From: Elusimicrobiota bacterium
Lineage (GTDB): Bacteria; Elusimicrobiota; Elusimicrobia; UBA1565
DNA: 64,000 nucleotides
Direction of reading: 5' to 3'
NCBI GenBank assembly: GCA_043819795.1
Contig: JBDREN010000049.1
Coordinates: forward strand, 2,379 to 66,378
Shown here one piece after another: positions 12,710-62,272 of the stretch. A program made the translations under genes and the position numbers. Numbering within the stretch: position 1 is the first letter of the stretch; every line of letters begins with the position of its first letter. Under the pieces are notes generated by a model. It made no database searches, had not been told where the DNA came from, and saw only the letters and a program-made list of their open reading frames with translations.

Positions 12710-13045
12710 CTACCTGGACCCGGGCCTCTCCGTCACTTCCCGGTCTTCGGGAAAATTCGAGTTGAAGGAATACGACTTGACCGTCCCATCCGCGCTGAAT
12801 CGGACGTAGAGATCCCGGGTGTCGCGGGCTCCGAGCAGCCGCAGTCTATAGTGGACCCAAGTCGCCGTGGCGTCCCCGTCATCGAGGCCTCTGCGGTATG
12901 GTCCGCCGAGCTCGCGCAGGAGATCCTGCTCCGTGGTCTTCCCCGTCCGGATCTCCGGGACGCGGGAAACATCGAAGGGCCGCCCGATGGTCACGCATCC
13001 GACGGACATGAATGGAATCGCCAGCAATATCAAGAGCGCGCGCAT
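12710..13045 (-). CDS. Small outer-membrane lipoprotein, SmpA/OmlA (BamE-like)
   Basis: Lipobox ...MSVGC, ~110 aa, and the BamE-like pattern (TGKTTEQDLLRELGGP...W.Y...). Start set at the internal ATG 13045. Confidence 0.5.
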   Translation of the reverse strand: MRALLILLAIPFMSVGCVTIGRPFDVSRVPEIRTGKTTEQDLLRELGGPYRRGLDDGDATATWVHYRLRLLGARDTRDLYVRFSADGTVKSYSFNSNFPEDREVTERPGSR

Positions 13046-13441
13046 ACCGCCTCCCGGTCGGCTTCCCGCCGTTGTGCAGAGCCTCCCGCAGCTATCCCCG
13101 TCTGCGCCAAGATGGTACACTTTTGCGCAAGGCTCTTCCAGCTCACCGACGACGGCGCCATCGACGGCGGGAAGAGCGACGGCGTTCTCGCGGCGGAGAT
13201 CCCGATAGCGCCGGGGAGCCGGCGACGCGGGGCAAGCCTTGCGGCGCCGGGTTGACCCGCCGCAGGGGCGCGCGGCCGGCCGGAGAGACTCCATTAAAAG
13301 AAGCGGCCGGAACCGGCGGATTGTGCGCTATGCTGCGGCCCGCGGCGCCCCCCGGCCTATCGACGCGCGGGAGCGGCGCGGGCTAATAGGAGACGTGACT
13401 CCCGTGGATAGGCGACGCGGCGCCCTTCCGCCCAAAGGCGA

Positions 13442-44700: not shown

Positions 44701-45680
44701 ACCGTCTCCTGCTCACGGACATGCGGATGCCGGAGACGGACGGCGCGGACCTGGCGCGGGAGGTGCGCCGGGACCCGGCCTTGGCGGACGTTCCGATCGT
44801 GGTGATGACCTCGCTGGGGCAGTCGCTTCCCGCGGACCAGGCGCGCGAGGCCGGGATCGTGGGCTGGCTCTACAAGCCGGTCCGGTCGGCGGAGCTTCTC
44901 GCCTGTCTCGCCTTGGTCCTGGGCAAGGGCGGGCGGGAGCCCGCGGGGCCGGCGCCCGCACCTCCTCGATGGCGCGCGCGACGCAGACAGCGTCTTCGCG
45001 TGCTTCTCGTCGAGGATAACCCCGTGAACCGGAAAGTAGCCCTGATCCAGCTCGACAGGCTGGGGTACCAGGCCGACGCGGCGGCCAACGGCCTGGAGGC
45101 GCTCCGCGCGTTCGAGAAGGGCTCCTATGACCTGGTGCTCATGGACTGCGAGATGCCGGAGATGGACGGCTATCAGGCGACCGCGGAGATCCGCCGCCGC
45201 GAGGGGGCCCAGGATCGCGTCCCCATCATCGCCATGACGGCGCACGCGCTGAAAGGGGACCGCGAGAAGTGTCTGGCGGCCGGGATGGACGACTACGTCT
45301 CCAAGCCGGTCCGGTTCAAGGACCTGTCGGCGGCGCTGGCGCGCTGGGAGGATCCGCTGGACCGTTCCGTCGTGGACGATCTGCGCGAGGTCGCCGGCGA
45401 TGTGAGCGAGGTGGCCGGCGTCTTCCTGGAGGACGCCCCGAAGCGGATCGCGGCGATGCGCGGAGCCGTCTCGGCGGGCGATTCCCATAAGCTCGCTTTC
45501 GAGAGCCACCAGCTCAAGGGCGCGAGCGGCAGCATTGGCGCGAGGCGTCTGCGCCGGCTCTGCGCCCGGATCGAGGCGATCGCCAAGTCGGGCGCCGTCT
45601 CCGAGGTCGAGGGGCTCCTCAGCGGGCTGGAGGACGAGTTCCAGGAGGTTCAGGCGGGGCTCGAGAGGAATACTAGATAG
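41706..45680 (+). CDS. Hybrid sensor histidine kinase: GAF, multiple PAS/PAC, HisKA, HATPase_c, two receiver domains and a C-terminal Hpt domain
   Basis: GAF (FGTSVAYISLVDADREWF), several PAS/PAC repeats, H-box MSHELRTPLNAI, G-box GTGLGLAI, receivers (VLVVDDNAANR; VLLVEDNPVNR...DLVLMDCEMPEMDG) and Hpt (HQLKGASGSIGARRL). The start is uncertain (a TTG at 41706 per the track, or ATG 41763). Confidence 0.8.
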   Translation: MAAALDDKRGRNFLHYIKDMRAGRAGSEKARLAAAAESGLLDTPPEERFDRITRIARRHFGTSVAYISLVDADREWFKSRQGLRLRSVPREVSFGARVVRKSGVFSLVDARKDPKFSEHPLVAGGPRVRFVAACPLSTSDGSRVGALAIADRKPRRLGKGDLGALRDLARIAEAELRASGAHDPAAGTLRRVRDLQDFVDNVPELIQSVAPDGSFRYVNRAWRRALGYDEDDVARLNLFDIIAPESFAHCQDVFKRVMSGEYVQDMEAVFLAKGGGKVFLSGSANCHMESGKPTHTRAIFRDVTEQKRAEAELRKRTYELGERVKELNCLYGISALSERADISLEEFLQETAELILRSWQYPEVTCARITLEGREFRTRNFRESPWKQTADLQARGARFGSVEVYYLEKRPRRYEGPFLKEERRLLNAIAERLGKIAQRRRVEDALRKGEAGYRTLVDNLPQKVFLKDENSVYLSCNERYARDLKIRPEEILGRTDYEFFPRELAEKYRTDDKRIMESGRIEDLEEEYIEDGRRAIIQTVKTPIKDDSGVVVGVLGIFWDITERKRAEQKLRQLSLAVEHSPNIVMITDPEGKIEYVNPAFSSVAGYAPEDVLGRGAGELGEQSAEEQGRMWAAIRSGTVWRGEFPNKTKSGGSYWELASIAPIKDEDGNITHFVKVAQDITERKRMEAELAKARDQALAAAKAKAQFLAKMSHELRTPLNAIIGMSDLLLDTPLKHQQREYASTVHDSGEVLLSLINDVLDFSKLEVGKLQLESVEFDLRLLLEEAAQLCSFQAHAKGLEVLLAMPDDVPSALRGDSGRLRQILMNFLGNAVKFTEKGQVVLLASKEEEDERRAMLRLAVADTGLGIEPETQARLFEAFTQADASTTRRFGGTGLGLAISRQIIERMGGEFGVESSPGIGSTFWCRVPFEKAPGEGSAEAARKPDFSGARVLVVDDNAANREIMRERLSGWGMRPDVAAGAPEALDRLRREAAGPDPHRLLLTDMRMPETDGADLAREVRRDPALADVPIVVMTSLGQSLPADQAREAGIVGWLYKPVRSAELLACLALVLGKGGREPAGPAPAPPRWRARRRQRLRVLLVEDNPVNRKVALIQLDRLGYQADAAANGLEALRAFEKGSYDLVLMDCEMPEMDGYQATAEIRRREGAQDRVPIIAMTAHALKGDREKCLAAGMDDYVSKPVRFKDLSAALARWEDPLDRSVVDDLREVAGDVSEVAGVFLEDAPKRIAAMRGAVSAGDSHKLAFESHQLKGASGSIGARRLRRLCARIEAIAKSGAVSEVEGLLSGLEDEFQEVQAGLERNTR

Positions 45681-48010: not shown

Positions 48011-49369
48011 ATGCAGTTTGAAGGCCAAGGTCGTTTTTTCGAGACCATCCTCCGTTGTGTCGCTGACGGCGTGTTCACGGTGGACCGCGACTGGCGTATC
48101 ACCTCCTTCAATAAGGCGGCCGAGCGCATCACGGGCATGAGCGCCCGGCAGGCCATGGGCAAGAGATGCTCCGAAGTCTTTCACGCGGACCTCTGCGGTG
48201 ACGGCTGCGCCATCAGGCGGGCTCTCGAGACCAAACGCGAGGTCATCGAGCAGCCGGCCAATATCCGCGACCAGCGCGGCAGGGCGATCCCGATAAGCAT
48301 CAGCGCGGCCGTGCTTCGGGGGGAGGACGGGACCGTCCTCGGCGGGGTCGAGACGTTCCGCGACCTGTCGGCCATCGAGCAGCTCAGGCGCGAGATCCGG
48401 AGCCAGTACACCTTCGAGGAGATCGTCGGCAAGAGCGAGGCTTTCCAGAAGGTGTTCTCCATCCTGCCGGACGTCGCCGCCAGCGAGAGCACGGTCCTCA
48501 TCGAAGGCCCGAGCGGCTCCGGCAAACAGCTCCTGGCGCGGACCATACACAACCTGAGCCCCCGCCGGGATCGGCCTTACGTCGTGGCGAACTGCGGGAT
48601 GATGCCGTCCGGCCGCTGCGCGTCCGAGCTTTTCGGCCACGTGCGAGGCGCCTTCAAGGACGCCAAGGGGGACCGGCTCGGCCGCATCGCGCAGGCCGAA
48701 GGGGGGACCATCTTCCTGGACGAGATCGGCGACCTGTCGATGGAGAGCCAGGTCAGGCTCCTCAAGGTCCTTCGGGACGGAGAATACGAGCCGCTGGGCG
48801 GCGTCAGTCCCCGGCGCGCCGATGTGCGCGTGGTCGCTGCCACGAGCAAGAGCCTGCCGGATCTGGTCGGGCGGGGGCTTTTCCGCGACGATCTCTACTT
48901 CCGCCTGGCGGTGGTGCGGCTGAGCATACCGCCCCTGTCCGAGCGGCGCGAGGACATCCCCTGCCTGGTCGAGCACTTCGTCCAGCGCTTCAACGCCAAG
49001 CGCGGCAAGAGCATCCAGGGGGTGACGCCCGCGGCCATGGAGCTTCTCATGCGCCATGGTTTTCCCGGGAACGTGCGCGAGCTGGAGAACCTGATCGAAT
49101 GCGGCTTCGCTCTATGCCACGGCGGATGGATGGACGTCGGCCATCTGCCCGAGGATCTGAGGCCGTCGCGGCGGCCGGGCGCCGCCGGGCGCCGCCTCGA
49201 GGGCGCGTCCCTGCTCCGGCACATCGAGGCGGACGCGGTCCGCGCCTCCTTGGGGCGGAACGCGGGCCATCTCGGCCGCACGGCCGAGGAGCTGGGCATC
49301 AGCCGGACCACGTTGTGGCGCAAGATGAACAAGTACGCCATCGAAGCGGACGAGTTCCGGGCCGGTTGA
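48011..49369 (+). CDS. Sigma-54-dependent transcriptional activator with N-terminal PAS sensor (no receiver domain) and C-terminal Fis-type HTH
   Basis: PAS (VFTVDRDWRITSFNKAAERITG) with a Cys cluster (CSEVFHADLCGDGC). AAA+ sigma-54 interaction domain (LIEGPSGSGKQLLA, GAFKDA, ESQVRLLKVL...FRDDLYFRL). HTH_8 (ELGISRTTLWRKMNKY). Confidence 0.85.
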   Translation: MQFEGQGRFFETILRCVADGVFTVDRDWRITSFNKAAERITGMSARQAMGKRCSEVFHADLCGDGCAIRRALETKREVIEQPANIRDQRGRAIPISISAAVLRGEDGTVLGGVETFRDLSAIEQLRREIRSQYTFEEIVGKSEAFQKVFSILPDVAASESTVLIEGPSGSGKQLLARTIHNLSPRRDRPYVVANCGMMPSGRCASELFGHVRGAFKDAKGDRLGRIAQAEGGTIFLDEIGDLSMESQVRLLKVLRDGEYEPLGGVSPRRADVRVVAATSKSLPDLVGRGLFRDDLYFRLAVVRLSIPPLSERREDIPCLVEHFVQRFNAKRGKSIQGVTPAAMELLMRHGFPGNVRELENLIECGFALCHGGWMDVGHLPEDLRPSRRPGAAGRRLEGASLLRHIEADAVRASLGRNAGHLGRTAEELGISRTTLWRKMNKYAIEADEFRAG

Positions 49370-49388: not shown

Positions 49389-50762
49389 GTGAGCACCCAA
49401 AGGAAATACAGCTACTTCGTCGAGCCCAAGGCGCTCGAGGTCGCGGAGCGTCCGCGAAAATTCCTCATGGCATTCGCGGCCGTGCTGAAGAACGCCAGCT
49501 ACGGGCTGGCGCTCGATACGTACGCGCGCCTGAGCACCAAATGCGGGCGTTGCGTGGCCTCCTGTCAGCTCTATCAGACCACGCGCGAGGAGCGGGACAT
49601 CCCCTGCCATCGCTCCGAGCTCCTGCTGCGGGTGTACCGGCGGTACTTCACGCATTCGGGCCGCCTCAAGGCCAAGATATTCAGCGGTTTCGAGTTGACG
49701 GACGCCTACTTGGACGAGATGGGCGAGGCCTACTACCGCTGCACCGCCTGCCGGCGGTGCAAGGCCACCTGCCCCATGGGCATCGACCACGCCCTGGTCA
49801 CTCATCTGGCCCGGTGGCTGCTCTCGGAGATCGACGTCATCCCCAAGGCGCTGTTGGTGGCGACGCGCGAGCAGCTCGAGGGCGTCGGCAATACCTCGGC
49901 CATCCCGGTCCCCGCGCTCAAGGACACCTGCGAGTTTCTGGAGGAGGAGCTCAAGGAGATCACCGGCGTGGACATCAAGTTCCCCATGGATGTCGAGGGC
50001 GCCGAGTACGTCTTCTTCCCGGCGGTCTCGGACTATCTGCTCGAGGCGGACACCCTCATGGGCAACGCGGCCGTCATGCACGTCACCGGCGGGTCGTGGA
50101 CCATCGGCACGGGCAACTACGACGGCATCAACTACGGCCTGTTCTACAGCGATCGCATGATGGAGCGGATCGTCAACAACGTCGTCAAGGAGGTCCGCCG
50201 CCTCAAGGGGAGGAAGGTCCTCGTCGGCGAATGCGGCCACGCCACTCGCAGCGCCTGGTACGTGCCGGCCTTCGGCGGCCCGGACGCGCCGCCGGTGGTC
50301 AATTGCTTGCAGTACGCCCACCGGATGCTCGAGGCCGGGAAGCTCCCCCTGAAGAAAGAGCTTATCAAGGAGCGGGTCACCTATCACGATCCGTGCAATA
50401 TCGCCAGGAGCGGGCGGATCACCGAGGAGCCTCGGGAGCTCCTTAAGGCTATCTGCGGGGACTTCGTGGAGATGACGCCGAACCGCGCGGAGAACTACTG
50501 CTGCGGCGGAGGCGGCGGCACGGTCTCCATCGACGAGATCCGGGCTTTCCGCACGGGTCTCATGGGAAAGCGCAAGGCGGATCAGATCCGCGCGACCGGC
50601 GCCAAATACGTCGTGTCGCCCTGCGCCAACTGCAAGAAACAGCTCCGCGAGGTCTGCGAGGACAACGGCCTCAACGAGGTCGAGGTCGTGGGCCTGCACG
50701 ACCTGCTGCTGAAGGCGATCGACTTCGGGGTCCCCGAGAAGAAAGGAGAGGACGATGGGTGA
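49389..50762 (+). CDS. DsrK/HdrD/HmcF-like iron-sulfur oxidoreductase (CCG-domain protein)
   Basis: Ferredoxin-type CxxCxxCxxxCP motifs (CGRCVASCQ; CTACRRCKATCP) and C-terminal CCG-domain motifs (PCNIA...YCCGGGGG...SPCANC). Confidence 0.75.
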   Translation: MSTQRKYSYFVEPKALEVAERPRKFLMAFAAVLKNASYGLALDTYARLSTKCGRCVASCQLYQTTREERDIPCHRSELLLRVYRRYFTHSGRLKAKIFSGFELTDAYLDEMGEAYYRCTACRRCKATCPMGIDHALVTHLARWLLSEIDVIPKALLVATREQLEGVGNTSAIPVPALKDTCEFLEEELKEITGVDIKFPMDVEGAEYVFFPAVSDYLLEADTLMGNAAVMHVTGGSWTIGTGNYDGINYGLFYSDRMMERIVNNVVKEVRRLKGRKVLVGECGHATRSAWYVPAFGGPDAPPVVNCLQYAHRMLEAGKLPLKKELIKERVTYHDPCNIARSGRITEEPRELLKAICGDFVEMTPNRAENYCCGGGGGTVSIDEIRAFRTGLMGKRKADQIRATGAKYVVSPCANCKKQLREVCEDNGLNEVEVVGLHDLLLKAIDFGVPEKKGEDDG

Positions 50763-51465
50763 GCTAGAGATCTGGACCGAGTGGGCGCGCGGGCCGCTGT
50801 TCAGGGCCGCGCTGGCGTTCATGATCCTGGGCCTTCTGCGTCACGCGGCGTTGACCATATGGGAGCTGGCGGGGATCATGTACCGCGCCGGCGACAAGGC
50901 CTTCCCGTGGAGGCGGGCATTCTCCGCCACGCTAAAATGGCTTTTCCCGGTGGGGCAGATCAAGAACCGTGTCCTCTACAGCCTGACCACGCTCGGCTTC
51001 CATGCCGCCGTCATCATCGTTCCCGTTTTTCTCGCGGGCCACGTCGCGCTCTGGGAGCGGGGCACGGGCCTGTGCTGGCCGACCATCCCCAACGGCGTGG
51101 CGGACGTGCTGACGATCATGGCCGTGCTCGCGGCGGCCTTGCTCGTGGCGGAGCGCGCGGCCGCGCGGGACTCCCGGGCGCTGAGCCGCTTCCAGGACTA
51201 CGCCTTGCCCCTGCTCGTGGCCGCGCCCTTCGCGACCGGCTTCCTGGTCATGCATCCGGCTTTAAACCCGTTCGGCCATGAAGCGACGATTCTGGTCCAC
51301 GTGTTGAGCGCGGATATTCTGTTCATCCTCATCCCGCTGACCAAGCTGAGCCACATGATCCTGCTCCCGGGCACGCAGATCATCTCCGAGCTGTCCTGGC
51401 ATTTCCCGCCGGACGCCGGCAGGAAAGTGGGCGTCGATCTCGGGAAGGAGAAGCAACCCATATGA
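50755..51465 (+). CDS. DsrM/HmcE/NarI-like di-heme b membrane subunit
   Basis: Five TM helices with conserved His pairs placed as in the nitrate-reductase gamma family. Translationally coupled to flanking genes. Confidence 0.65.
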   Translation: MGELEIWTEWARGPLFRAALAFMILGLLRHAALTIWELAGIMYRAGDKAFPWRRAFSATLKWLFPVGQIKNRVLYSLTTLGFHAAVIIVPVFLAGHVALWERGTGLCWPTIPNGVADVLTIMAVLAAALLVAERAAARDSRALSRFQDYALPLLVAAPFATGFLVMHPALNPFGHEATILVHVLSADILFILIPLTKLSHMILLPGTQIISELSWHFPPDAGRKVGVDLGKEKQPI

Positions 51466-52595
51466 AGAAGCCCGTCGCCATCCTTACGGACACGACGCTC
51501 TGCACCGGCTGCGAGGAATGCGTCGCGGCGTGCAAGAAGGAGAACGGCCTGGGCGAGGATCGCCGGTGGCGCTGGCAAAGCTCCGTGAGCGAGCTTTCCG
51601 CGTCGCGCTTCACCGCAATCATCCGTCGGCCCGGCAACCGCTACGTCCGCCAGCAGTGCCGGCACTGCGTGGACCCGGCGTGCGTGAGCGCCTGCATCGT
51701 GGGCGCGCTGCGGAAGACGGAAGAAGGCGCGGTGGTCTACGACCAGGATAAGTGCATCGGCTGCCGTTACTGCATGCTGGCCTGCCCCTACGGGATCCCG
51801 CGCTACGATTGGGAGAAGCCGATCCCGTACATCAGGAAGTGCACGCTCTGCTATGACAGGCTTGAGGAGGGAAAGGCCCCCGCCTGCGTGGAGGCCTGCC
51901 CCGAGAAGGCGACGATATTCGGCTCCCGCTCCGATATGCTGGCCGAGGCCCATCGGCGCCTGAAACGGCATCCCGGGAAGTACGTCCAGAAGGTCTACGG
52001 GGAACGCGAGGTGGGGGGGACGTCGGTCCTCTACATCTCGGACATACCCCTTGATTTCCTCGGCTGGCAGACCGATCCCGGCGAGCGGCCGCTGCCGGAC
52101 CTCACGTGGGCCGCCCAAAGGAAGATCCCGGCCGCGGCTCTGGGGGTGTTCGGGCTCATGGGCGGCACCTACTGGGTCATCGGCCGGAGGATGCAGGCCG
52201 CGGCGCGGGCGGGCCTGAAAGACGCGCCCCGGGAAGGGGACGCCCCGTCCGTGGGGCACGGGCATCCGGAGCAGGGAGGGGCCCTCTCCGGCCTGAAGAC
52301 GGCCCTGTGGATGCCTCTCGGCGTGGTGGCGGCCGTGACCATCGTGCGTTTCGCGCGGAATCTGGACGCGGCCGCGAGCCTCGGGGACGGAGCCCTCTGG
52401 ACCCTGTGGCTCGCCCTCGGCGTGGCGGGAGGCACCGGTCTCGGGGCGGGGATCCATTGGCTCGCCGCCCGCCGCAAGAAGGCGCCGGAGGAGGACGCGG
52501 AGCCCGAGGAAGGAACTCCCACCCCGCCCGTCCAGGCGTCGAAGACTTCCGTTCCCAAGCAGATCGCGGGCGACGGCGGCCCGAAGGAGCGATAG
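51462..52595 (+). CDS. DsrO/HmcB/PsrB-like four-cluster [4Fe-4S] ferredoxin-type subunit with C-terminal membrane anchor
   Basis: Four CxxCxxCxxxC(P) motifs (CTGCEECVAAC, CRHCVDPACVSAC, CIGCRYCMLACP, CTLC...ACVEACP) and 2-3 C-terminal TM helices. No obvious Tat signal. Confidence 0.7.
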   Translation: MKKPVAILTDTTLCTGCEECVAACKKENGLGEDRRWRWQSSVSELSASRFTAIIRRPGNRYVRQQCRHCVDPACVSACIVGALRKTEEGAVVYDQDKCIGCRYCMLACPYGIPRYDWEKPIPYIRKCTLCYDRLEEGKAPACVEACPEKATIFGSRSDMLAEAHRRLKRHPGKYVQKVYGEREVGGTSVLYISDIPLDFLGWQTDPGERPLPDLTWAAQRKIPAAALGVFGLMGGTYWVIGRRMQAAARAGLKDAPREGDAPSVGHGHPEQGGALSGLKTALWMPLGVVAAVTIVRFARNLDAAASLGDGALWTLWLALGVAGGTGLGAGIHWLAARRKKAPEEDAEPEEGTPTPPVQASKTSVPKQIAGDGGPKER

Positions 52596-52599
52596 GGCG

Positions 52600-54561
52600 A
52601 TGATGCCTCTGAGAAGAATCAAGAGCCTGCTCTGGTTCGTCCTGGGCGCGGGCATGGTGACCATCGCCGCGCGGCTGCTCACCGGGCTCGGCGCGGTCAC
52701 CAACCTGTCCCACAACGTTTCCTGGGGCCTGTGGAACGCGGTCAAGATCAGCATCGTGCCCCTCTCGGCCGGAGGGTTCGTTTTGGCTGCGATCGTCTAC
52801 GTCTTCCATATGGAGAGGTTCCGTCCCGTGCTCCGTTTGGCCATCCTTACGGGGTTTTTGGGCTACTCGACCTTCGCCACGATGCTCATGTTCGATATCG
52901 GGGTGCCCTACCGGATATGGCATCCCATGGTCTACTGGCAGCACCATTCCGTGCTCTTCGAAGTGGCGTGGTGCGTGATGCTGTATCTGACCGTGCTGGC
53001 CCTCGAGTTCTTGCCCAACGTGCTGGAGCATCCTCTGCTGAAGCACCCCCTGCTCCAGAAGGGATACAAGCTCCTGAAGAGCGCGACCGTACCCCTGGTG
53101 ACCGCGGGGATCGTGCTGTCCACGCTGCACCAGTCGTCGTTGGGCTCGCTGTTTTTGATCGTCCCCCACCGTCTCGATCCCTTATGGTACAGCCCGCTGA
53201 TACACGCGCTCTTCCTGGTCTCCGCCGTCGGGATGGGGCTTCTGGTGATCGCCGTGGAGGCGGTCCTGATCGAGCGTCTCTACGGCGTCAAGGCGCCGCT
53301 GGACGTCCTCGCCCCTTTGGCCCGCGCGGGCGCGGTGGTGATGGCCCTCTTCTTGGCCGTCAGGCTGGCCGACCAGGTCGCTCGCGGGGTGCTCCCGGGT
53401 GCTCTGAGCACATCTCCGATGGCGGCGGCATTCGTCCTTGAGACTCTGATCGCCTCGATCGTGCCGCTGCTGCTTCTGCGCAGGAGCGTCCGCGAGAGCC
53501 GCGGGGGCCTGTTCGCCTGCTCTCTTTCCGCGGTGCTGGGAGTCGTCTGGTACAGGTCGAACGTCGCCTTGCTGGCCATCGACTGGGGCGAGGCGGCCTA
53601 TTTCCCGGCGTGGACCGAGTTCGCCCTGTGCTTCGGCATACTGGCCGGGTCGGGCTTGGTGTTCTTCTTGCTGCTGGAGAACCTGGACATTTATTACGGG
53701 CCGGCCGCATCCGGCCGTGACCGCGAGCCGCAGGTGCCGGGGTTGGCGTTCGAGGCTTGGCTGGCGGACGCGAGGATCACCGCGGCCAGGCGCTATTCCC
53801 TGTTCATCGTGGCGGGCGCGGCGGCGGCCGTCTTGTTTCTCCCCGAGGGCACGGTGTTCGGAGCCAGGCCCGCGGACACGCCGGCGGCGCAGGCCCGGCG
53901 GGTCCGGGGCTTGTCGGTCCGGACCGGCGGCGGACGCGTCAGCACGCTGCGCCTCGGCGAGAGGCCGGTCCCCGCTAAGGGCCGAGTGAAGCGCCTGCCG
54001 CTTTACCTGATTGACGGCGACCGCGATGAGGACGCGGTCCTCTTCGATCACGCGGGCCATGTCAAGCGGGCGGGCGGCGAGAAGCGCTGCGGGGTGTGCC
54101 ATCACCTGAACATGCCGCTCGACGAGAACACCTCCTGCCATGAATGTCATCGCGACATGTACGAGCCCGCCTCCGTGTTCAGCCACGCATCGCATGTGCG
54201 CGAACTCGGGGGGAACGCGGGCTGCGTCAAGTGCCATGAGGATCCTCTCGTGGTGAAGGACCGCCGGACGGCCGTCGCTTGCGGGGAATGCCACTCCGAT
54301 TCGGCGGCAAAGGGCTCCTTCGTCGAGGCGCCGGGGCCGAGGTGGGGGGCCGCGCCGGGCTACGCGGACGCGATGCACGGCCTCTGCGAGAGTTGTCATA
54401 AGAAGAAGGCGAAAGAAGAGCCGGGCCGTTATCCCGCGGCGCTGGGGCGTTGCGCCGCCTGCCACGATACGGACCGCCCCATGGATATCCGTCGGATGGC
54501 GCCGCGAAGTGATAGAATGCGGGCCATGCGCGCCGAGGAACGCGGGCTCTCGGGCGGCTGA
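52600..54561 (+). CDS. NrfD/PsrC/DsrP-like polytopic membrane subunit fused to a C-terminal hexaheme cytochrome c domain (DsrJ/HmcA-like)
   Basis: ~10 TM helices of the NrfD family over ~430 aa, then a soluble C-terminal domain with six CxxCH motifs (CGVCH, CHECH, CVKCH, CGECH, CESCH, CAACH). Confidence 0.7.
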   Translation: MMPLRRIKSLLWFVLGAGMVTIAARLLTGLGAVTNLSHNVSWGLWNAVKISIVPLSAGGFVLAAIVYVFHMERFRPVLRLAILTGFLGYSTFATMLMFDIGVPYRIWHPMVYWQHHSVLFEVAWCVMLYLTVLALEFLPNVLEHPLLKHPLLQKGYKLLKSATVPLVTAGIVLSTLHQSSLGSLFLIVPHRLDPLWYSPLIHALFLVSAVGMGLLVIAVEAVLIERLYGVKAPLDVLAPLARAGAVVMALFLAVRLADQVARGVLPGALSTSPMAAAFVLETLIASIVPLLLLRRSVRESRGGLFACSLSAVLGVVWYRSNVALLAIDWGEAAYFPAWTEFALCFGILAGSGLVFFLLLENLDIYYGPAASGRDREPQVPGLAFEAWLADARITAARRYSLFIVAGAAAAVLFLPEGTVFGARPADTPAAQARRVRGLSVRTGGGRVSTLRLGERPVPAKGRVKRLPLYLIDGDRDEDAVLFDHAGHVKRAGGEKRCGVCHHLNMPLDENTSCHECHRDMYEPASVFSHASHVRELGGNAGCVKCHEDPLVVKDRRTAVACGECHSDSAAKGSFVEAPGPRWGAAPGYADAMHGLCESCHKKKAKEEPGRYPAALGRCAACHDTDRPMDIRRMAPRSDRMRAMRAEERGLSGG

Positions 54562-54565
54562 AACC

Positions 54566-55681
54566 ATGGCCCCCAAAGAGATAGAAAGCTGGCTTCGATC
54601 GAGCCTCTTTAACGAGGTCCCGGTGAGCATCTGCGTGATCGACCGGGGTTTCCGGATCATCGAGGCGAACCGGAGGTTCAGGGAGGAATACGGCCCCTGG
54701 AAGGACCGGGCGTGCCACGAGGTCTGCAAGGGTCTGGAGGAGCCCTGCGAGCGTTGCGGCGCGGTCAAGACCTTCTCGGACGGGCGCGTGCGCAACCGGG
54801 AGGAGACGGGAGCGGGCGGGAAGCACTACCTGGTGCACATGGTCCCCATCACCACCGACGGCGGGGATATCTCCTACGTCATCGAGACGTTCACGGATAT
54901 CACGCAGGTGAAGCAGCTGGAGGGCGAGAAGCGCGAAGCCGAGCGTCTGGCCGCCGTCGGCGAGACCGTGGCCGGCATCGCCCACGGCATGAAGAACGTG
55001 CTTACCGGGCTCGAAGGCGGCGTCTATGCCGTCAATACGGGCATCCAGCATGGCGACGACGAGAGGATCACCGAAGGCTGGGCCATGCTCGAGGAGAATA
55101 TCGCGCGCATCTCGGAGTTTGTCAAGGAGTTCCTGGCTTTCTCCAAGGGGCGCATCGCGCGGGTGGCCTTCGTGGACCCCAACGCCCCGGCGCGGGCGGT
55201 CTTTGAGCTCTTCCGGGAGAAGGCCGCGCAGGCGGGCATCGAGCTGAAGGCGGACCTGCAAGAGGGGATTCCTCCCGCGCCCCTGGACGAGCAGGGGATC
55301 CACGCCTGCCTGGCCAACCTCGTATCGAACGCCCTGGACGCCTGCTCCATGGGCGAGCAGCGGCGCGCGTGCGTGGTGACGATTCGCTCCCGGGAGCGCA
55401 GCGGGACGCTAGTGTACGAGGTTGCGGACAACGGCCGCGGGATGGACTACGAGATCAGTAGGAAAGTGTTTTCGAGGTTCTTCAGCACGAAGGGCTCGGA
55501 CCGGGGCACGGGTCTGGGGCTGCTCACCACTAAGAAGACCATCCACCAGCACGGCGGCCGGGTCTCGTTCAGCTCCGAGGAGAGCAGGGGCTCGGTGTTC
55601 CGCATCGAGCTTCCCCGGGAAAGACTGCCCAAGCCGGGCGGGAAGCCCGCCCAACGACAGGCCGCGGAAGGAGACGCCTGA
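54566..55681 (+). CDS. PAS-domain sensor histidine kinase (cytoplasmic; PAS with Cys4 cluster)
   Basis: PAS (ICVIDRGFRIIEANRRF) with CHEVCKGLEEPCERC. H-box AHGMKNVL, N/G boxes (LVSNALDA, GTGLGL). Start set at ATG 54566. Confidence 0.8.
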   Translation: MAPKEIESWLRSSLFNEVPVSICVIDRGFRIIEANRRFREEYGPWKDRACHEVCKGLEEPCERCGAVKTFSDGRVRNREETGAGGKHYLVHMVPITTDGGDISYVIETFTDITQVKQLEGEKREAERLAAVGETVAGIAHGMKNVLTGLEGGVYAVNTGIQHGDDERITEGWAMLEENIARISEFVKEFLAFSKGRIARVAFVDPNAPARAVFELFREKAAQAGIELKADLQEGIPPAPLDEQGIHACLANLVSNALDACSMGEQRRACVVTIRSRERSGTLVYEVADNGRGMDYEISRKVFSRFFSTKGSDRGTGLGLLTTKKTIHQHGGRVSFSSEESRGSVFRIELPRERLPKPGGKPAQRQAAEGDA

Positions 55682-56229
55682 TGGACAAAGAGAACGCCAA
55701 AGGACGCGCCGAGGATAAGACCGTACTCGTGGTCGATGACGAGCCGAACGTGCGCCGCCACCTGGCCCACATCCTAGAGGACGCCGGCTTCAAGGTCCTT
55801 ACGGCCTCCGATGGGGATGAGGCCCTGAAGACCATCCGGGAGCGGCGCCCGGACATCATCTCGCTCGACCTGGTCATGCCGCGCAAGAGCGGGCGCCGGC
55901 TGCTCTACGAGCTGAAGAAGGATAAGGAGCTCTCCCGCATCCCGGTGGTCATCGTCACCGCGCACGCCCAGGACGAGCTGGGCCAGAGCGACATGGAAGC
56001 CATCAGGGAGAGCATGATCATATCGGGCCCGGGCTTCTATCTGGAGAAGCCGGTTAGGCCCATGGACTACGTGCGCTGCATCCAGGAAGCCCTGGGCATC
56101 GAAGTGGCGGATCAAGCCGCGGACAAAGTCAGCCTCAAGGACGAGCTGAAGCGGCAGATGCAGGGGGCGGAGCCGCACGCGCTGCGCCGCGCCCTCGAGG
56201 CGTTGAGAAAGAAAGGCCCGCCGCGCTAG
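55681..56229 (+). CDS. Response regulator, receiver domain with C-terminal extension (no DNA-binding domain recognised)
   Basis: VLVVDDEPNVRRHL...DIISLDLVMPRKSG...VVIVTAH receiver signature. Confidence 0.75.
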   Translation: MDKENAKGRAEDKTVLVVDDEPNVRRHLAHILEDAGFKVLTASDGDEALKTIRERRPDIISLDLVMPRKSGRRLLYELKKDKELSRIPVVIVTAHAQDELGQSDMEAIRESMIISGPGFYLEKPVRPMDYVRCIQEALGIEVADQAADKVSLKDELKRQMQGAEPHALRRALEALRKKGPPR

Positions 56230-56248: not shown

Positions 56249-56602
56249 ATGGCGAAGAAGATCCTGATCGTCGAAGACGAGCCGCACGTCGTGAAGTATC
56301 TCGAGATGTTCCTCCACGACGCGGGCTTCCAGACGGTATCCGCGAGCGACGGTCAGACGGGTCTGGAGCTGGCCAAGCGCGAGAAGCCGGACCTGGTGAT
56401 CCTGGACCTTATGATGCCGAAGAAGACGGGGACGGACTTCTACCGGAAGCTCTCCAGGGACAAGGAGCTCGGCGATACCCCCGTCATCGTGGTCAGCGGT
56501 CTGGCCGGCCGAGATCTCGTCGTCAGGAAGCCTGCGGCGGTGTTCGACAAGCCCCCGGACCGCGAGGGGCTCATCGCCGCCATCAAGAAAGCCCTCCCGT
56601 AG
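56249..56602 (+). CDS. Single-domain response regulator (CheY-like)
   Basis: ILIVEDEPHVVKYL...DLVILDLMMPKKTG..PVIVVSG. Confidence 0.8.
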   Translation: MAKKILIVEDEPHVVKYLEMFLHDAGFQTVSASDGQTGLELAKREKPDLVILDLMMPKKTGTDFYRKLSRDKELGDTPVIVVSGLAGRDLVVRKPAAVFDKPPDREGLIAAIKKALP

Positions 56603-56708: not shown

Positions 56709-57752
56709 ATGCTGTACAAGGTGATCACGAAGGCCGAGTTTCGGAAGTTCGTCGACGGCCTGATCCAGGACAACCAGACTATAGGCCCCAAGCGGGTCGC
56801 CACGGACGCGAAAGGCAAGCCCGTCTACCAGTTTGTCGAGGTCCGCTCCTTCGACGAGTTGGACCTCGACTACACGATCACCTACTCCTCGGTGAAGAAT
56901 TTCTTCCACCCCTTCCGCGAGGAGCTGTCTCGTTTCAAGCTGAAAGATGACGATTGGGAGCAGGAGATCGAATACCGCGTCAATCCGAGGGTCATCATCG
57001 GCGTGCGGCCGTGCGACATCAACGCCTTGGCGATCCTGGACAAGGTGTTCTTGAGCGGGAGATTCCCCTCGCCGTACTACATCGCCCGGCGCCGGAACAC
57101 CTTCCTGATCGGAATGGACCATCTGCCCCTGGATGACTGCTTCTGCGAGTCCCTGAACCGGCACGCCCCGCGCGAGGGGTTCAACCTCTACTGCTCGGAC
57201 ATCGGGGACAGATACTATCTCTCGATCCTTTCCTCAAAGGCCTTCAGCTTCCTCAAGAACGTGAGGACGAGCGAGCCCTCCAAGGCGGACAACAAAAGAT
57301 ACATCGAGAGAAGAAAGCTCATCAAACGGAGCTTCAAGACCAAGGTGGAGGTCTCGGGCCTGCCGAGCTTCCTGGACATCGAGTTCAAGTCCCCGATATG
57401 GGATAAATGGGGGGACAAGTGCCTGAACTGCGGGACATGCGCCATGGTCTGCCCCACGTGCTACTGCTACGGGGTGGAGCAGTCCGTGGACGTGGACCTG
57501 AAGACCGCCCGCAAGGAGCGCATGCTGTACTCCTGCAACGTCGTGGATTTCGCGGAGGTGGCCGGAGGGCACAACTTCAGGCCGAAGAAGGCGGACAGGC
57601 TGAAGTACCGGTTCTATCACCATTACAGGGGTTTCGAGGAGAACGCCGACGAGCAGATCTGCGTTGGCTGCAACCGGTGCGGCAGGGCCTGCCTGGCGGG
57701 GATCAACCCGAAGGACGTGATCAACGACTTGAGGCTGGAGACCGGAGAATGA
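56709..57752 (+). CDS. Group 3b [NiFe]-hydrogenase beta subunit / anaerobic sulfite reductase AsrA-like iron-sulfur subunit
   Basis: AsrA/HydB-like Cys clusters ([16 protein letters not shown]; [14 protein letters not shown]). Confidence 0.75.
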
Positions 57753-58663
57753 AGGCGGGATTCAAAATACCCAGGCAGGACATCAATCTCGAGCCGTTCA
57801 TGACGGCGCCTCCCCAGTTCAACCGCAAGACCATCGTCATGCGCACGGACAAGGTCTACAAGTGCGAGCTCATCAACATCGTCGAGCTGACCTCCATGGA
57901 GAAGCTCTTCCATCTCAAGATCATCGACCCCCGCGAGAGGAAGCTGTTCTCCTTCCGGCCGGGACAGTTCGTGATGGTCCAGGTGCCCGGCTCCGGGGAG
58001 GTCCCGGTCTCCATATCGAGCTCGAGCAACAACCGGGAGTTCCTGGAGCTGTGCGTCCGCAGGGCGGGGCGCACCACCGGCATGCTGCACCGGGCCCGGA
58101 TCGGCGCGAAGGTGGGGATCCGCGGGCCCTTCGGCTCGTCTTTCCCCATGGAGGAGATGGCTGGCCACAACGTCCTGCTGATCGCCGGAGGGCTCGGCCT
58201 GGCCCCCCTGCGCGCCCCCATCTGCTGGGTCAACGAGCGCCGGGACCAGTACGGCGACGTCCACATCCTCTACGGCGCCAAAGAGCCTTCCCAGATGCTC
58301 TTCACGTACGAATTCAAGGAATGGGAACGGGTGAACCACATCAATCTGCTGACCATCGTCGAGAAGGCGGACAAGGCCTGGAAGGGCGGGACGGGCCTCA
58401 TCACCGAGCTCTTCAGGGATTTCTCCATCAAGCCGCTCGACACCTACGCGATCGTGTGCGGGCCGCCCGTCATGTTCAAGTTCGTGTGCGGGCATCTGGA
58501 CTCCATCGGGGTTCCCATGAACCGCATGTTCGTCTCCCTGGAGCGGCGGATGCACTGCGGCATGGGCAAGTGCTGCCGGTGCATGGTGGGCTCGACGTTC
58601 ACCTGCGTGGAAGGCCCCGTGTTCGACTACTGGAGCGTCATGAATTTGAAGGAGGCGATTTGA
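57749..58663 (+). CDS. Group 3b [NiFe]-hydrogenase gamma subunit / AsrB-like FAD-NAD(P) oxidoreductase with [2Fe-2S] cluster
   Basis: Ferredoxin-reductase-type FAD/NAD-binding fold ([20 protein letters not shown]) and C-terminal CGMGKCCRC...C cluster. Start set at ATG 57749, overlapping the upstream stop. Confidence 0.75.
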
Positions 58664-59415
58664 GATACCTCGGCATCGAGCTCAAGAAGCCCAGGATCGC
58701 CGTCTTCGACTTCACCTGCTGCGAGGGCTGCGAGCTGCAGCTGGCGAACAAGGAGGAGACCCTGGTCGATTTCCTCTCCCTTGTCGAGGTCGTGAACTTC
58801 CGGGAGGTGTCCTCGGACAAGAGCGAGGACTACGAGATCGCCTTCGTGGAGGGGGCGGTCTCGAGGGAGGATGAGGTCGCTCGCCTGAAGAAGATCAGGG
58901 TGAACGCGAAGGTCCTCGTGGCTTTCGGCGCCTGCGCCTGCTTCGGCGGCGTGAACCAGATCAAGAACAAGTTCCCGCTCAAGTCGGTCGTCCGAGAGGT
59001 GTACGGCAGGCACCGCGTGGCCACGTCCAAGGTGCGGAAGATCAGCGAAGTGGTCAAAGTGGATCTCGAGATCCCGGGCTGTCCGGTCTCCAAGAAAGAG
59101 GTGGAAAGGATCGTCGTCGCTCTGGTCACGGGCGCGGGCATCAGCCTGCCGAAGTACCCCGTCTGCCTCGAGTGCAAGGCGAAGTGCAACGTCTGCGTCC
59201 TGGACCTCGGGCAGATCTGCCTGGGTCCGATCACGCGCGCGGGCTGCGATTCGCCCTGCCCATCCGGGGGGACCGCGTGCCTGGGCTGCAGGGGGCCGGC
59301 GCCCGAGGCCAATTACGAGTCGTTCCTGCGGATATTGAAAGACCGGGGCTTCAAGGCCCCGGAGATCAAGGAGAGGCTCGAGTTCTACGGCGCCTTCAAC
59401 GGGGTCATGAGATGA
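58660..59415 (+). CDS. [NiFe]-hydrogenase small (delta) subunit, group 3 type
   Basis: Proximal-cluster Cys ligands ([10 protein letters not shown]; GACACFGG; PGCP). TTG start at 58660 after AGGAGG. The track ORF in this frame is artificially extended upstream. Confidence 0.75.
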
Positions 59416-60686
59416 AGCGCGCCAGGGAGATCACCGTACGCCATGTGACCCGGGTCGAGGGCCACGGCGACATCCATATCAAGGTGAAAGACGGCCGGCT
59501 CGTGGATGCGCGGTGGGCCGTGGTGGAGACCCCGCGTTTCTTCGAGGCCATGCTCAAGGGCATGTCCCATGATCTGGCGCCCATACTGACGGCCAGGATC
59601 TGCGGCATCTGCTCCATAGGCCACTGCCTGGCGAGCCTGAGGGCGGTGGAGAGGGCCATGGACGTCAAGGTCCCGGAGACCGCGCGGCTGTTGCGCCTGC
59701 TCGCCAAGCACGGCGAGACCCTTCAGAGCCACGCGCTCCACGTGTTCTTCCTGTCCGCGCCCGATCTCTTCAAGGTGGGGAGCGTCATCCCCCTGATCAA
59801 GTCCCATCCCGAGGTCGTCGGCATCGCGGCCAGGCTCAAGAAGCTGGGAAACGACGCTTGCGACCTGATCGCGGGGCGGACCACGCACCCGGTGAGCCTG
59901 GTGGTGGGCGGGCTCAGCAGGCTGCCCACGGACAAGCAGATCGAGGAGCTGAGGGGCGCGTTCCTTGCGAGGCTGCCGGACATGCGCGCGGCCGTCGACC
60001 TCTTCAAGACGCTTCCCATGCCGGACTTCCAGCGGGAGACGGAGTTCGTGTCATTGAAGGGCCAGGGGGACTATCCCTGGATCGGGGGGGATCTCGTGTC
60101 GTCCGACGGCGTCCGCAGGCCGGAGGACGGCTACCTGGCCATGACGAACGAATACAAAGTGGAGTTCAGCACCTCGAAGTTCGCCAAGCTGAGTAGGGAG
60201 TCCTTCGCGGTCGGCGCCCTGGCGAGGTTCAACAACAATCACAAGCATCTGCGGCCGGAGGCGAAGGGAGCCGCCAAGGCGCTGGGCTTGAGTCCCCTGA
60301 GCCACAACCCTTTCATGAACAACGTGGCCCAGCTCGTGGAATGCTATCACGTGATGCTGGAGTCCATCGAGTTGCTGGACGGGCTTCTGGGCCGCCGGGG
60401 AAAGACCGCGTCCCGTCCTTATAAAGTGAAGGCCGGCCGGGGCGTCGCCGCCGTGGAGGTGCCCCGGGGCATCCTCTACCACGAATACGAGCTCGACAAG
60501 AAGGGCAAGGTCGTCAGGGCGAACTGCGTCATCCCCACCACGCAGAACCACGCCAACATCCACCACGATCTCCGGGCGCTCGCCGCGCGGCTGGTGCGGG
60601 AAGGCAAAAGCGACGGGGAGATCACTTTGCTGAGCGAGATGCTGGTCCGGTCCTACGACCCCTGCATCTCCTGCTCCGTCCACTAG
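59412..60686 (+). CDS. [NiFe]-hydrogenase large (alpha) subunit, group 3b type
   Basis: N-terminal Ni-Fe ligands [10 protein letters not shown] and C-terminal DPCISCSVH. The protein ends exactly at the His, with no C-terminal extension. Start ATG 59412 overlaps the small-subunit stop. Confidence 0.85.
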
Positions 60687-61756: not shown

Positions 61757-62272
61757 ATGGTAGACCCTGCAAAGGCTTTTACCGAACCTGTGATTGCGAT
61801 CGGGACGCTGGCTGAGAAGAGCGGCCTTTCCGTATCCGCGATCCGGAAGTACGAGGCGGAGGGCCTGCTCATTCCCTTTCGGACGCCTTCCGGCCATCGC
61901 CTGTTTTCTCACGAGGACATGGACCGGGTGAAGATCATCCGCCACATGATCCAGGAGCTGGGCCTGAACATCGAGGGCATCAGGAGGCTGCAGGCGCTGC
62001 TTCCGTGCTGGGAGCTGGTCCGGTGCTCGGAGGATAAGCGAAGCGAGTGCCCGGCCTACAAAGACAACTCCAAGCCGTGCTGGATGGTCCGGGGAGGGGA
62101 CTGCAGCGCGCGCGGGAACGAATGCCGCAGCTGCGCGGTGTACCGGTTCGGCTCGCAGTGCACCGAGGACATCAAGCGCGTGGTGCACAACCGGGCGGCT
62201 CCGGAGGAGCTGAGCGAGGAAGTGCGGAAGGCTTTGAACAGGCTGGAACAACCTGAGAAGGGGGATAGATGA
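61757..62272 (+). CDS. MerR-family transcriptional regulator with C-terminal Cys-rich (8 Cys) domain
   Basis: MerR HTH (IGTLAEKSGLSVSAIRKYEAEGLL) and a C-terminal segment CWELVRC...C..C...C..C..C..C. Confidence 0.75.
   Translation: MVDPAKAFTEPVIAIGTLAEKSGLSVSAIRKYEAEGLLIPFRTPSGHRLFSHEDMDRVKIIRHMIQELGLNIEGIRRLQALLPCWELVRCSEDKRSECPAYKDNSKPCWMVRGGDCSARGNECRSCAVYRFGSQCTEDIKRVVHNRAAPEELSEEVRKALNRLEQPEKGDR

Follow-up and report, generated by a model that had tools for sequence, protein, structure and literature searches.

NrfD-type modules belong to the most common quinone-coupled energy converters of anaerobes. HmcC, HybB, and QrcD belong to the quinone-reducing branch of these proteins (PMC6303296). 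The functional roles of Y99, S129, and E133 of HybB have been described, and the Asp at HybB D58 (QrcD D70) has been reported to be essential for menaquinone reduction (PMC13059093). All entries in a review of NrfD-type modules have separate cytochrome subunits. What Hmc-type complexes do physiologically is still under debate, even for sulfate reducers. CbcL of Geobacter is a precedent for a single polypeptide that combines a quinone-interacting membrane domain with a periplasmic multihaem c domain. However, its membrane part is of the dihaem b type (HydC/FdnI-like), unlike the cofactor-free NrfD domain.

The window analysed in this work is a stretch of 64,000 nucleotides from an Elusimicrobiota bacterium. 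It contains an operon in which the gene of an NrfD-type membrane protein continues into a multihaem cytochrome c domain. The predicted product of this fusion operon is a widespread four-gene electron-transfer complex that is related to Hmc and Tmc of sulfate reducers. The four genes (F, E, B, and the fusion gene), the segments of the fusion protein, and the neighbouring regulators are as follows:

48011..49369, + strand: regulator with PAS, sigma-54 activator, and HTH_8 domains, syntenic with the operon (Pfam; adjoins the operon in most related loci)
49389..50762, + strand: F, DsrK/HmcF/TmcB-like cytoplasmic iron-sulfur protein with a CCG domain (Pfam CCG and Fer4_8, NCBIfam)
50755..51465, + strand: E, HmcE/TmcC-like membrane protein, predicted dihaem cytochrome b (NCBIfam, conserved His)
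51462..52595, + strand: B, HybA/HmcB/FdnH-like protein with four 4-Cys cluster motifs and a C-terminal membrane helix, no Tat signal (NCBIfam, HybA alignment, PDB)
52600..54561, + strand: fused gene, 653 aa, NrfD (HmcC/HybB-like) domain, 11th helix, and six-haem class III cytochrome c domain (single ORF, Pfam, homologues of the same length)
52600..53682, + strand: NrfD core, aa 1-361, ten membrane helices, both termini cytoplasmic (HybB identity, ActC fold, K+R bias, AlphaFold)
53683..53856, + strand: cytoplasmic linker and 11th membrane helix, aa 362-419, Arg-Arg before the helix, chain leads to the periplasm (hydropathy, AlphaFold, alignment)
53857..54027, + strand: periplasmic linker with predicted beta strands, aa 420-476 (AlphaFold, conservation)
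54028..54489, + strand: six-haem cytochrome c domain, aa 477-630, CxxCH at 497, 513, 542, 561, 596, and 618 (alignment, PDB profile search)
54509..55681, + strand: PAS histidine kinase, downstream (Pfam; position conserved)
55681..56229, + strand: response-regulator receiver protein (Pfam; position conserved)
56249..56602, + strand: second, single-domain receiver protein (Pfam Response_reg, 72 bits)

The fusion gene is an uninterrupted ORF that starts with ATG and is translated without an internal stop. Its product is 100% identical to an NCBI protein of an Elusimicrobiota MAG. Pfam identified both NrfD (PF03916) at aa 33-319 (70.2 bits vs cutoff 25.8) and Cytochrom_CIII (PF02085) at aa 477-565 (44.3 bits vs cutoff 22.9), and Cytochrome_C7 was also matched. 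The intact ORF and the Pfam hits for both domains confirm the single polypeptide with an NrfD membrane domain and a multihaem cytochrome that had been proposed in the initial annotation, and its view that the fusion ties the quinone-interacting domain to the haems is supported. The possibility that a frameshift, a missed stop, or an assembly error merged separate NrfD and cytochrome genes is practically nil. No stop interrupts the 654 codons. The suspected junction at nt 53700-53950, where a frameshift or stop had been considered, is in frame and codes for the 11th membrane helix, the position and hydrophobic character of which are conserved in 29/29 aligned homologues. The best 120 matches from each of two database searches have 583-698 aa with both domains annotated in all but one, and full-length matches on a single strand and frame were found in 80 independent genomes. 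The artefact was also excluded because the same full-length architecture is exhibited by thousands of database proteins and by at least 581 species genomes of many phyla, with 33-69% identity. The stop-free ORF, the homologues, and the conserved junction helix together rule out this origin of the fusion.

The search for similar architectures that had been suggested earlier identified a fusion that is not rare. It is common in uncultured Gemmatimonadota, Planctomycetota, Acidobacteriota, Ignavibacteria, Zixibacteria, Latescibacterota, Elusimicrobiota, and other groups. All named homologues among the matches listed are from metagenome-assembled genomes. A homologue search for a cultured host that was seeded from Melioribacteraceae likewise gave only MAG-derived names among the matches listed. 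Mros1571/1572 of Melioribacter roseus, which have been described as an 'NrfCD cluster' (PMC3534657), could be members of the fusion family. The database labels of the homologues are 'NrfD/PsrC membrane anchor' or 'Ni/Fe-hydrogenase cytochrome b subunit', which name the membrane part only and so hide the cytochrome domain. No account of an NrfD-cytochrome c fusion was found in full-text literature searches, while the NrfD-family survey of Duarte et al. (BBA 2021) may mention one.

The NrfD domain of the fusion protein is 33% identical to E. coli HybB over 342 aa (E 1e-37). The NCBIfam scores of the NrfD part are 224.3 bits for HmcC (NF045714, equivalog cutoff 550), 221.7 bits for HybB (NF008133, equivalog cutoff 450), and 28.1 bits for DsrP (cutoff 350), and QrcD is also homologous. 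The identity as a fusion of DsrP and DsrJ that had been suggested initially was rejected on these scores; the cytochrome is c3-like and not of the DsrJ type. The closest solved folds to the NrfD core are those of ActC of alternative complex III, where the top Foldseek matches are ActC and ActF (probability 1.00, TM-score 0.60-0.65 on the target). The sequence threshold, the ten-helix PsrC/ActC-type fold, and the adjacent four-cluster partner all place this domain in the NrfD/PsrC family. Members of this family have 8-10 membrane helices and lack ligands for redox cofactors. Among the fusion homologues, the residues that correspond to HybB Y99, S129, and E133 do not vary. The Asp that is equivalent to HybB D58 and QrcD D70 is replaced by Lys, residue 49 of the fusion protein, in the clade of the window (6/29 sequences).

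Hydropathy and the AlphaFold model both exhibit 11 membrane helices in the fusion protein, which consist of a ten-helix core (aa 2-361) and one extra helix (aa 392-419). The initial estimate of about ten helices holds for the NrfD core but not for the total. The AlphaFold helices of the membrane part are confident. The 11th helix has its hydropathy peak at aa 396-419 and is modelled as a helix at 392-413 (pLDDT about 93), and an 'RRYSL + hydrophobic' segment was found in every aligned homologue. The mean K+R count of 29 homologues is 18.8 in the predicted cytoplasmic loops vs 4.5 in the periplasmic loops. This charge bias predicts that the N-terminus is inside, and with an odd number of helices the cytochrome domain would be outside, so that the periplasmic C-terminus that was implied earlier is also predicted here. 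Within the NrfD domain, conservation is highest in the periplasmic loops (0.81 vs 0.59 for the cytoplasmic loops). The periplasmic linker is the least conserved region (mean column conservation 0.47), and AlphaFold places strands at 433-442, 447-452, and 463-471 with modest confidence.

The six CxxCH motifs that had been noticed in the C-terminal part were located and take up all 12 cysteines of the last 230 residues. In 29 sequences, all six motifs are invariant, as are exactly six His outside them, which is consistent with six bis-His haems, and this invariance argues that the CxxCH pattern is no chance product. The candidate distal His are aa 484, 487, 502, 529, 532, and 593, and a c3-like F-x-H-x-x-H precedes the first haem motif. 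Both the Pfam score and the one extra His per haem agree with class III cytochrome c. The domain fits an all-bis-His class III cytochrome (c3/HmcA-like) with six predicted haems. A single-sequence search of the PDB with the fusion protein gave no match, and the profile search gave solely c3/HmcA/ActA-type cytochromes, with cytochrome c3, the 16-haem HmcA, and ActA of alternative complex III matched by the haem domain, and a weak ActC match. From these searches, the PDB holds no solved structure of a close relative. The match to HmcA is weak (26 bits). The AlphaFold model of the haem domain has low confidence (mean pLDDT 65.6), and haem geometry was not read from it.

The order activator-F-E-B-fusion-kinase-receiver-receiver is kept in most of 80 loci from many phyla, and the second receiver gene follows in many related loci. 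F, E, B, and the fusion gene are contiguous in most loci, often with overlapping stop and start codons, and B adjoins the fusion gene in every locus where upstream sequence is present. The expression of the operon is probably under the control of the adjacent sigma-54 activator and the two-component system. Two variants were identified. Locus L082 encodes a short form that consists of a membrane anchor and six haems without the NrfD core, together with F and E and without B. The Planctomycetales variant consists of E', B, the fusion, and an 888-aa multihaem cytochrome, without F. These variants indicate that the NrfD core never occurs without B, while the haem domain can also be combined with F and E. 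The hydrogenase genes nearby in the window match sulfhydrogenase-type NAD(P)-dependent subunits best, all below the cutoff, and they are not conserved beside the operon in related loci. The listed GTG start of the kinase gene overlaps the fusion gene, and the true start is probably later.

The best NCBIfam matches of E are TmcC (126 bits, cutoff 240) and HmcE (117 bits, cutoff 275), and its H83, H96, H182, and H200 are invariant in 66/66 sequences. F matches DsrK (274 bits, cutoff 400), TmcB (203), and HmcF (200, cutoff 750), and its two 4-Cys motifs and CCG cysteines are conserved in 56-58/58 sequences. B matches HmcB (246 bits) and HybA (209 bits), where both matches begin at profile position 36-38, and FdnH is its best PDB match. 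None of the fusion protein, B, E, and F reaches an NCBIfam equivalog cutoff for a subunit of Hmc, Tmc, Dsr, or Hyb, and a simple transfer of function from those complexes is therefore not justified.

B has 16 cysteines in four motifs and a C-terminal extension that is specific to the window. Its C-terminal anchor can be aligned with the one in E. coli HybA (in both, a helix is directly followed by Arg-Arg and an acidic tail), and a conserved 'GRRMKL' stands after the helix, from which a cytoplasmic tail and an Fe-S domain on the outside are predicted. The HybA-like tail thereby predicts a periplasmic B. The 36-aa signal of HybA is absent from B in the alignment. No Tat signal was found on B in the window or in 73 full-length homologues examined, and no Tat-bearing partner that is conserved in the operon was found across related loci, so that a periplasmic B remains a prediction. 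Only two Tat-like N-termini occur in the whole window, both >30 kb from the operon. NrfD modules are characterised by Tat export of the iron-sulfur partner, with the signal on this protein or on a co-encoded one, and neither kind of signal was found for B. F was also considered as a Tat carrier for B through the conserved 'DRPRRFLEAFAAIL' near its N-terminus. This candidate was rejected because only a short, charged stretch follows the Arg pair, which itself lies behind 20-45 conserved residues.

We propose that the product of the fusion gene is probably the membrane core of a compact transmembrane redox complex of the Hmc/Tmc type that would link periplasmic carriers, menaquinone, and a cytoplasmic disulfide-type reductase. 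The ten helices would make up an HmcC/HybB-like NrfD domain that holds no cofactor and has its menaquinone site close to the periplasmic side. The 11th helix would cross the membrane and present the six-haem, all-bis-His, c3-type domain in the periplasm, where it may exchange electrons with periplasmic carriers and serve as the hub of two routes. One route would run between the haem domain, B (HybA/HmcB-like), and the quinone site of the NrfD domain. The other would lead from the haem domain to the two b haems of E and across the membrane to the CCG protein F, which would reduce or oxidise a cytoplasmic thiol/disulfide-type substrate. The fusion would set a 1:1 ratio and hold the cytochrome at the membrane. 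The direct wiring of the haems to the quinone site that had been envisaged in the initial annotation is not favoured. A separate four-cluster protein, B, is encoded next door and is always present with the NrfD core, so the haems are probably wired to the quinone site through B. This proposal is based on architecture, topology prediction, ligand conservation, synteny, and homology, from which we infer cofactor loading, electron paths, flow direction, substrate, and the periplasmic location of B.

B without an export signal could instead stay in the cytoplasm and serve F or another cytoplasmic partner, and the six-haem domain would then be the only periplasmic redox partner and feed the quinone site directly. 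This reading, which we regard as doubtful, agrees with the Tat signal being missing in every homologue examined, with no Tat-bearing partner being conserved in the operon or near it in the window, and with the Sec route, which is unusable for iron-sulfur proteins. Cytoplasm-facing NrfC/NrfD-type complexes also exist, for example SoeABC (PMC8076601). However, the anchor with its HybA-like helix, Arg-Arg, and acidic tail and the 'GRRMKL' place the Fe-S domain of B outside, and B occurs only with the NrfD core, even where F is absent, and is missing from the F-E-cytochrome variant. The N-in orientation of the NrfD domain that is set by the 11 helices makes the usual docking face periplasmic, and the periplasmic loops that are common to HybB are the most conserved part of that domain.

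It is less probable that B and the fusion protein act as a stand-alone quinol:cytochrome c oxidoreductase that resembles alternative complex III, with periplasmic or extracellular acceptors and a functionally separate F-E pair; we consider this unlikely. NrfCD-plus-cytochrome clusters have been interpreted likewise in genome papers (PMC3534657, PMC9386147). ActC has the closest solved fold, ActA is in turn similar to the haem domain, and the Planctomycetales variant has its large multihaem cytochrome in place without F. However, the sequence affinity is to HmcC, HybB, and QrcD of the quinone-reducing branch and not to ActC (PMC6303296), and F, E, B, and the fusion gene are contiguous in most loci with regulators in common. 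The haem domain also occurs with F and E alone, which indicates a functional link to the transmembrane b-haem/CCG module. The compact Hmc/Tmc-type complex is the preferred reading.

The signal-less B poses a concrete and testable export problem. We suggest tentatively, and with considerable doubt, that B reaches the periplasm by an undescribed route or stays cytoplasmic while the six-haem domain directly feeds the NrfD quinone site. The latter case would be the first known example of a haem partner that directly feeds that site. If the suggestion is true, either outcome would be a new mode of assembly or wiring for the NrfCD 'dimeric redox module', and an Hmc-like energy-conserving complex would be used by many phyla without sulfate reduction. 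The four-gene version with dedicated regulators could ease the study of the CCG substrate and energy conservation.

The complex differs from each of the known systems. DsrMKJOP is similar in having an outside NrfD, Fe-S, and cytochrome c module and a cytochrome b and CCG module that reaches the cytoplasm, and DsrK is the best match of F. However, the NrfD domain matches DsrP weakly (28 bits), DsrO has a Tat signal, and the DsrJ-type cytochrome has three haems whereas the fusion domain has six of the bis-His c3 type, which argues against a DsrJ-like cytochrome. E. coli hydrogenase-2 is similar in HybB, which is 33% identical to the NrfD domain with Y99, S129, and E133 equivalents conserved, and in HybA, which aligns with B including the C-terminal helix, Arg-Arg, and acidic tail. 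It differs in that no periplasmic NiFe hydrogenase adjoins the fusion operon, HybA carries a Tat signal of its own, HybB lacks a cytochrome domain, and the D58 equivalent is Lys in the clade of the window. Alternative complex III (ActA-ActB-ActC) has a ten-helix NrfD-type subunit with the closest solved fold that works with a membrane-anchored five- or six-haem c7/c3-like cytochrome. However, ActA is a separate polypeptide, ActB has a Tat signal and a molybdopterin-like domain, and ActF is a second NrfD subunit, with no b-haem/CCG module.

Tmc (TmcABCD) lacks subunits of the NrfD or NrfC type and has a soluble cytochrome with four haems, and no TmcD equivalent was seen here. Both systems are similar in that the best match of E is TmcC and F matches TmcB, and the short relative of the haem domain in the F-E-cytochrome operon without the NrfD core or B has the Tmc layout. 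Hmc (HmcABCDEF of Desulfovibrio/Nitratidesulfovibrio vulgaris) has a separate 16-haem HmcA, whereas the six haems here are fused to the NrfD C-terminus through the extra helix. The gene order here is F-E-B-C/A with homologues of only four subunits, and no HmcD-like gene was found in the window. B has no Tat signal, all scores are below the equivalog cutoffs, and the hosts of the fusion are mostly not known sulfate reducers. Both Hmc and the complex in this work consist of a periplasmic c3-type multihaem cytochrome, a tail-anchored four-cluster protein, an HmcC-type ten-helix NrfD protein, a NarI-like cytochrome b, and a cytoplasmic CCG iron-sulfur protein, and HmcC, HmcB, HmcE, and HmcF are the best or near-best NCBIfam matches of the window proteins.

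The fusion gene at 52600-54561 (+) is a single open reading frame of 653 residues that starts with ATG and contains no stop codon, according to the ORF listing and the translation. An NrfD domain occupies residues 33-319 (Pfam, 70.2 bits against a cutoff of 25.8), and class III cytochrome c and c7 domains occupy residues 477-629 (Cytochrom_CIII, 44.3 bits against a cutoff of 22.9). Six CxxCH motifs are located at residues 497, 513, 542, 561, 596, and 618. They take up all 12 cysteines of the C-terminal 230 residues and show no variation in any of the 29 aligned sequences. Exactly six other histidines of the haem domain are invariant in these 29 sequences (H484, H487, H502, H529, H532, and H593), which is the count required for six bis-His haems. 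The open reading frame, the Pfam domains, and the motif positions confirm the single fused gene with NrfD and six CxxCH motifs that was proposed in the initial annotation. The approximately ten membrane helices proposed there have been revised to 11, as both hydropathy and AlphaFold predict ten helices in the core (residues 2-361) and an eleventh at residues 392-419. The pLDDT values are mostly 70-96 in the membrane part, and the haem domain is poorly modelled.

The predicted cytoplasmic loops of 29 homologues contain a mean of 18.8 lysines and arginines compared with 4.5 in the predicted periplasmic loops. This bias indicates that the NrfD core is N-in, as is known for HybB and other ten-helix members, and the eleventh helix then places the cytochrome domain outside, in agreement with the periplasmic C-terminus whose topology had been questioned. 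The attachment of c-type haem occurs outside the cytoplasm. The periplasmic loops are the best-conserved part of the fusion (mean column conservation of 0.81 compared with 0.59 for the cytoplasmic loops).

A hidden frameshift or stop around nt 53700-53950, which would have restored two separate genes, was not found, as this segment encodes a conserved 'RRYSL + hydrophobic' helix in the 29-sequence alignment. An artefactual origin of the fusion is ruled out by the full-length homologues, the invariant haem ligands, and this conserved junction helix. An NCBI entry of an Elusimicrobiota MAG matches the protein with 100% identity. The best 120 of 3746 database matches are 627-698 residues long, share 45-69% identity with the window protein, and have both domains annotated in all but one case. 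The scan of one genome per species identified at least 581 confirmed stretches that are related to the fusion. The best 80 of those are near-full-length with 33-50% identity and belong to Latescibacterota, Gemmatimonadota, Planctomycetota, Acidobacteriota, Zixibacteria, Ignavibacteria/Melioribacteraceae, Kapabacteria, Thermodesulfobacteriota, Myxococcota, and others. A second search with a Melioribacteraceae seed gave at least 8000 candidates, and the best 120 all have both domains.

The fusion architecture is abundant in databases. No description or characterisation of it was found in the literature covered. A review of NrfD names separate cytochromes only (PMC8076601), and two genome papers report NrfCD-type clusters that are accompanied by or feed separate cytochromes, with the fusion unmentioned (PMC3534657, PMC9386147). 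Databases call the homologues 'Ni/Fe-hydrogenase cytochrome b subunit', 'HybB-like protein', or, in other entries, 'NrfD/PsrC family molybdoenzyme membrane anchor subunit', and the six-haem domain appears in none of these names. Among the related loci examined, neither a hydrogenase nor a molybdoenzyme gene is a conserved neighbour of the operon.

Three genes, F, E, and B, precede the fusion gene, with stop and start codons that overlap or almost touch:

49389-50762 (+), F, DsrK/HmcF/TmcB-like CCG iron-sulfur protein
50755-51465 (+), E, HmcE/TmcC-like membrane protein
51462-52595 (+), B, HybA/HmcB/FdnH-like four-cluster protein

Across the related loci, F retains both its two 4-Cys motifs and its CCG cysteines, and E has exactly four invariant histidines. 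One gene order, from a sigma-54 activator through F, E, B, and the fusion to a histidine kinase and then two receivers, is found in most of the 80 loci from the species-genome scan (L001-L080) and in the closest relatives of the window. A highly conserved 'DRPRRFLEAFAAIL' is present near the N-terminus of F in L001-L080 ('ERPRKFLMAFAAVL' in the window, residues 20-34, 49446-49490 (+)). It superficially resembles a twin-arginine motif without the subsequent hydrophobic core, and is probably an amphipathic helix that binds the membrane or a partner. About 35 related loci have a small NifX-like gene (PF02579) directly 5' of F and 3' of the activator. This NifX/NafY-like gene encodes about 135 or about 250 residues, sits about 400-900 nt just upstream of F (L001, L005, L006, L018, L022, L025-L030, L087, and others; 2972-3715 in L082), and may act in assembly or form a fifth component. 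The window lacks this gene, and its activator and F are separated by 19 nt.

Other genes were observed around the operon. A 1324-residue hybrid sensor kinase (41706-45680 (+); GAF, three PAS, HisKA, HATPase, two receiver domains, and Hpt) lies just 5' of a solute-binding protein gene and the regulator of the operon. The genes at 56709-60686 (+), right after the regulators, have their best matches in three subunits (beta, delta, and alpha) of sulfhydrogenase-type NAD(P)-dependent hydrogenases, with every score under its equivalog cutoff. The delta-like ORF is extended by a long stretch at its N-terminus, and these genes are not kept beside the operon in other genomes. A 295-residue ORF close to the window end (62269-63156 (+)) matches the NarI type (Nitrate_red_gam) weakly and may encode a further cytochrome b of the DsrM/HdrE-like kind. 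In the closest long-contig relative (L086, 614-2974 (-)), a pyridine-nucleotide disulfide oxidoreductase-rhodanese fusion and a DUF4405 membrane protein adjoin the activator, and could hint at sulfur or persulfide chemistry.

The location of B has to be weighed. The first cluster motif of B lies a few residues from the N-terminus, both in the window and in each of the 73 full-length homologues that were examined, and an alignment to E. coli HybA shows that B lacks the 36-residue Tat signal of HybA. The operon has no conserved Tat-bearing partner, and the window contains just two Tat-like N-termini, both distant, which is in favour of a cytoplasmic B with direct transfer from haem to quinone. 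We consider this arrangement rather unlikely. The C-terminal anchor of B aligns with that of HybA and continues into a conserved 'GRRMKL' and an acidic tail, from which the tail is predicted to be cytoplasmic and the Fe-S domain external. B is also found only together with the NrfD core, whose periplasmic loops are strongly conserved. Because of these features we lean towards a periplasmic B, which would be exported without a Tat signal of its own. A signal-less tail-anchored Fe-S protein with a HybB-like protein has a published precedent, where the presumed carrier is an adjacent Tat-signal FeFe hydrogenase (PMC10924467). At 377 residues, the window B is longer than its closest relatives (279-280 residues) and than B in other loci (about 255-290 residues). 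The additional C-terminal stretch (residues 250-377, 52209-52592 (+)) has two more hydrophobic segments, is similar to helices 1-2 of the NrfD domain encoded downstream (28% identity over 72 residues; 23-44 bits with many homologues), and appears to be left over from a partial duplication.

Two variants lack parts of this operon. The first is a 288-residue protein with an N-terminal membrane anchor, which resembles the N-terminus of the fusion, and the same six-haem domain without the NrfD core (6001-6867 in L082, also L083 and L084; a short relative is at 12757-13368 (-) in L002). Its operon has the same regulators, F, and E but no B, in the order activator, NifX-like, F, E, cytochrome, receiver, kinase, and receiver. 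The second is a Planctomycetales (Planctomycetota) variant (6302-12523 in L019; also L011, L012, L017, L020, L021, and L024) that has a divergent E-like gene together with B and the fusion, and after them an 888-residue multihaem cytochrome with paired CXXCH motifs. The CCG protein F, the sigma-54 activator, and the kinase are absent from it. The haem domain alone gave 336 matches among 1.84 billion representatives, which comprise complete fusions, numerous gene fragments, and some short forms that are genuine. Taken together, both variants indicate that B accompanies the NrfD core, and the short form indicates that the haem domain also pairs with the F-E module. The haem domain is thus read as the hub that joins a quinone branch (B and NrfD) to a transmembrane branch (E and F).

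The closest solved folds to the NrfD half are ActC and ActF of alternative complex III, and it shares 33% identity with E. coli HybB over 342 residues. The invariant Y89, S117, and E121 are equivalent to Y99, S129, and E133 of HybB. The equivalent of HybB D58 and QrcD D70, an aspartate reported as essential for menaquinone reduction (PMC13059093), is aspartate in 23 of the 29 sequences and lysine (K49, 52744-52746 (+)) in the window and its five closest relatives, where a one-residue deletion adjoins it. The substitution suggests that the proton path or the reaction direction may differ in this clade.

The NrfD half scores 224 bits with HmcC, 222 with HybB, 124 with QrcD, and 28 with DsrP, all under the NCBIfam equivalog cutoffs. 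The cytochrome half matches cytochrome c3, the 16-haem HmcA, the Geobacter dodecahaem cytochrome, and ActA, and it opens with a c3-like F-x-H-x-x-H motif. The fusion does not qualify as a member of HmcC, HybB, DsrP, or the full Hmc complex, and is therefore filed under the NrfD and class III cytochrome superfamilies only. These scores and matches describe an HmcC-like domain joined to an HmcA/c3-like domain, and not the DsrP-DsrJ fusion that had been proposed. The 288-residue cytochrome operon has the layout of Tmc and is a Tmc-like sister system. The best reading of the fusion operon, judged from sequence, is a compact Hmc/Tmc-type complex that would link periplasmic carriers, the menaquinone pool, and a putative cytoplasmic thiol/disulfide-type reaction.
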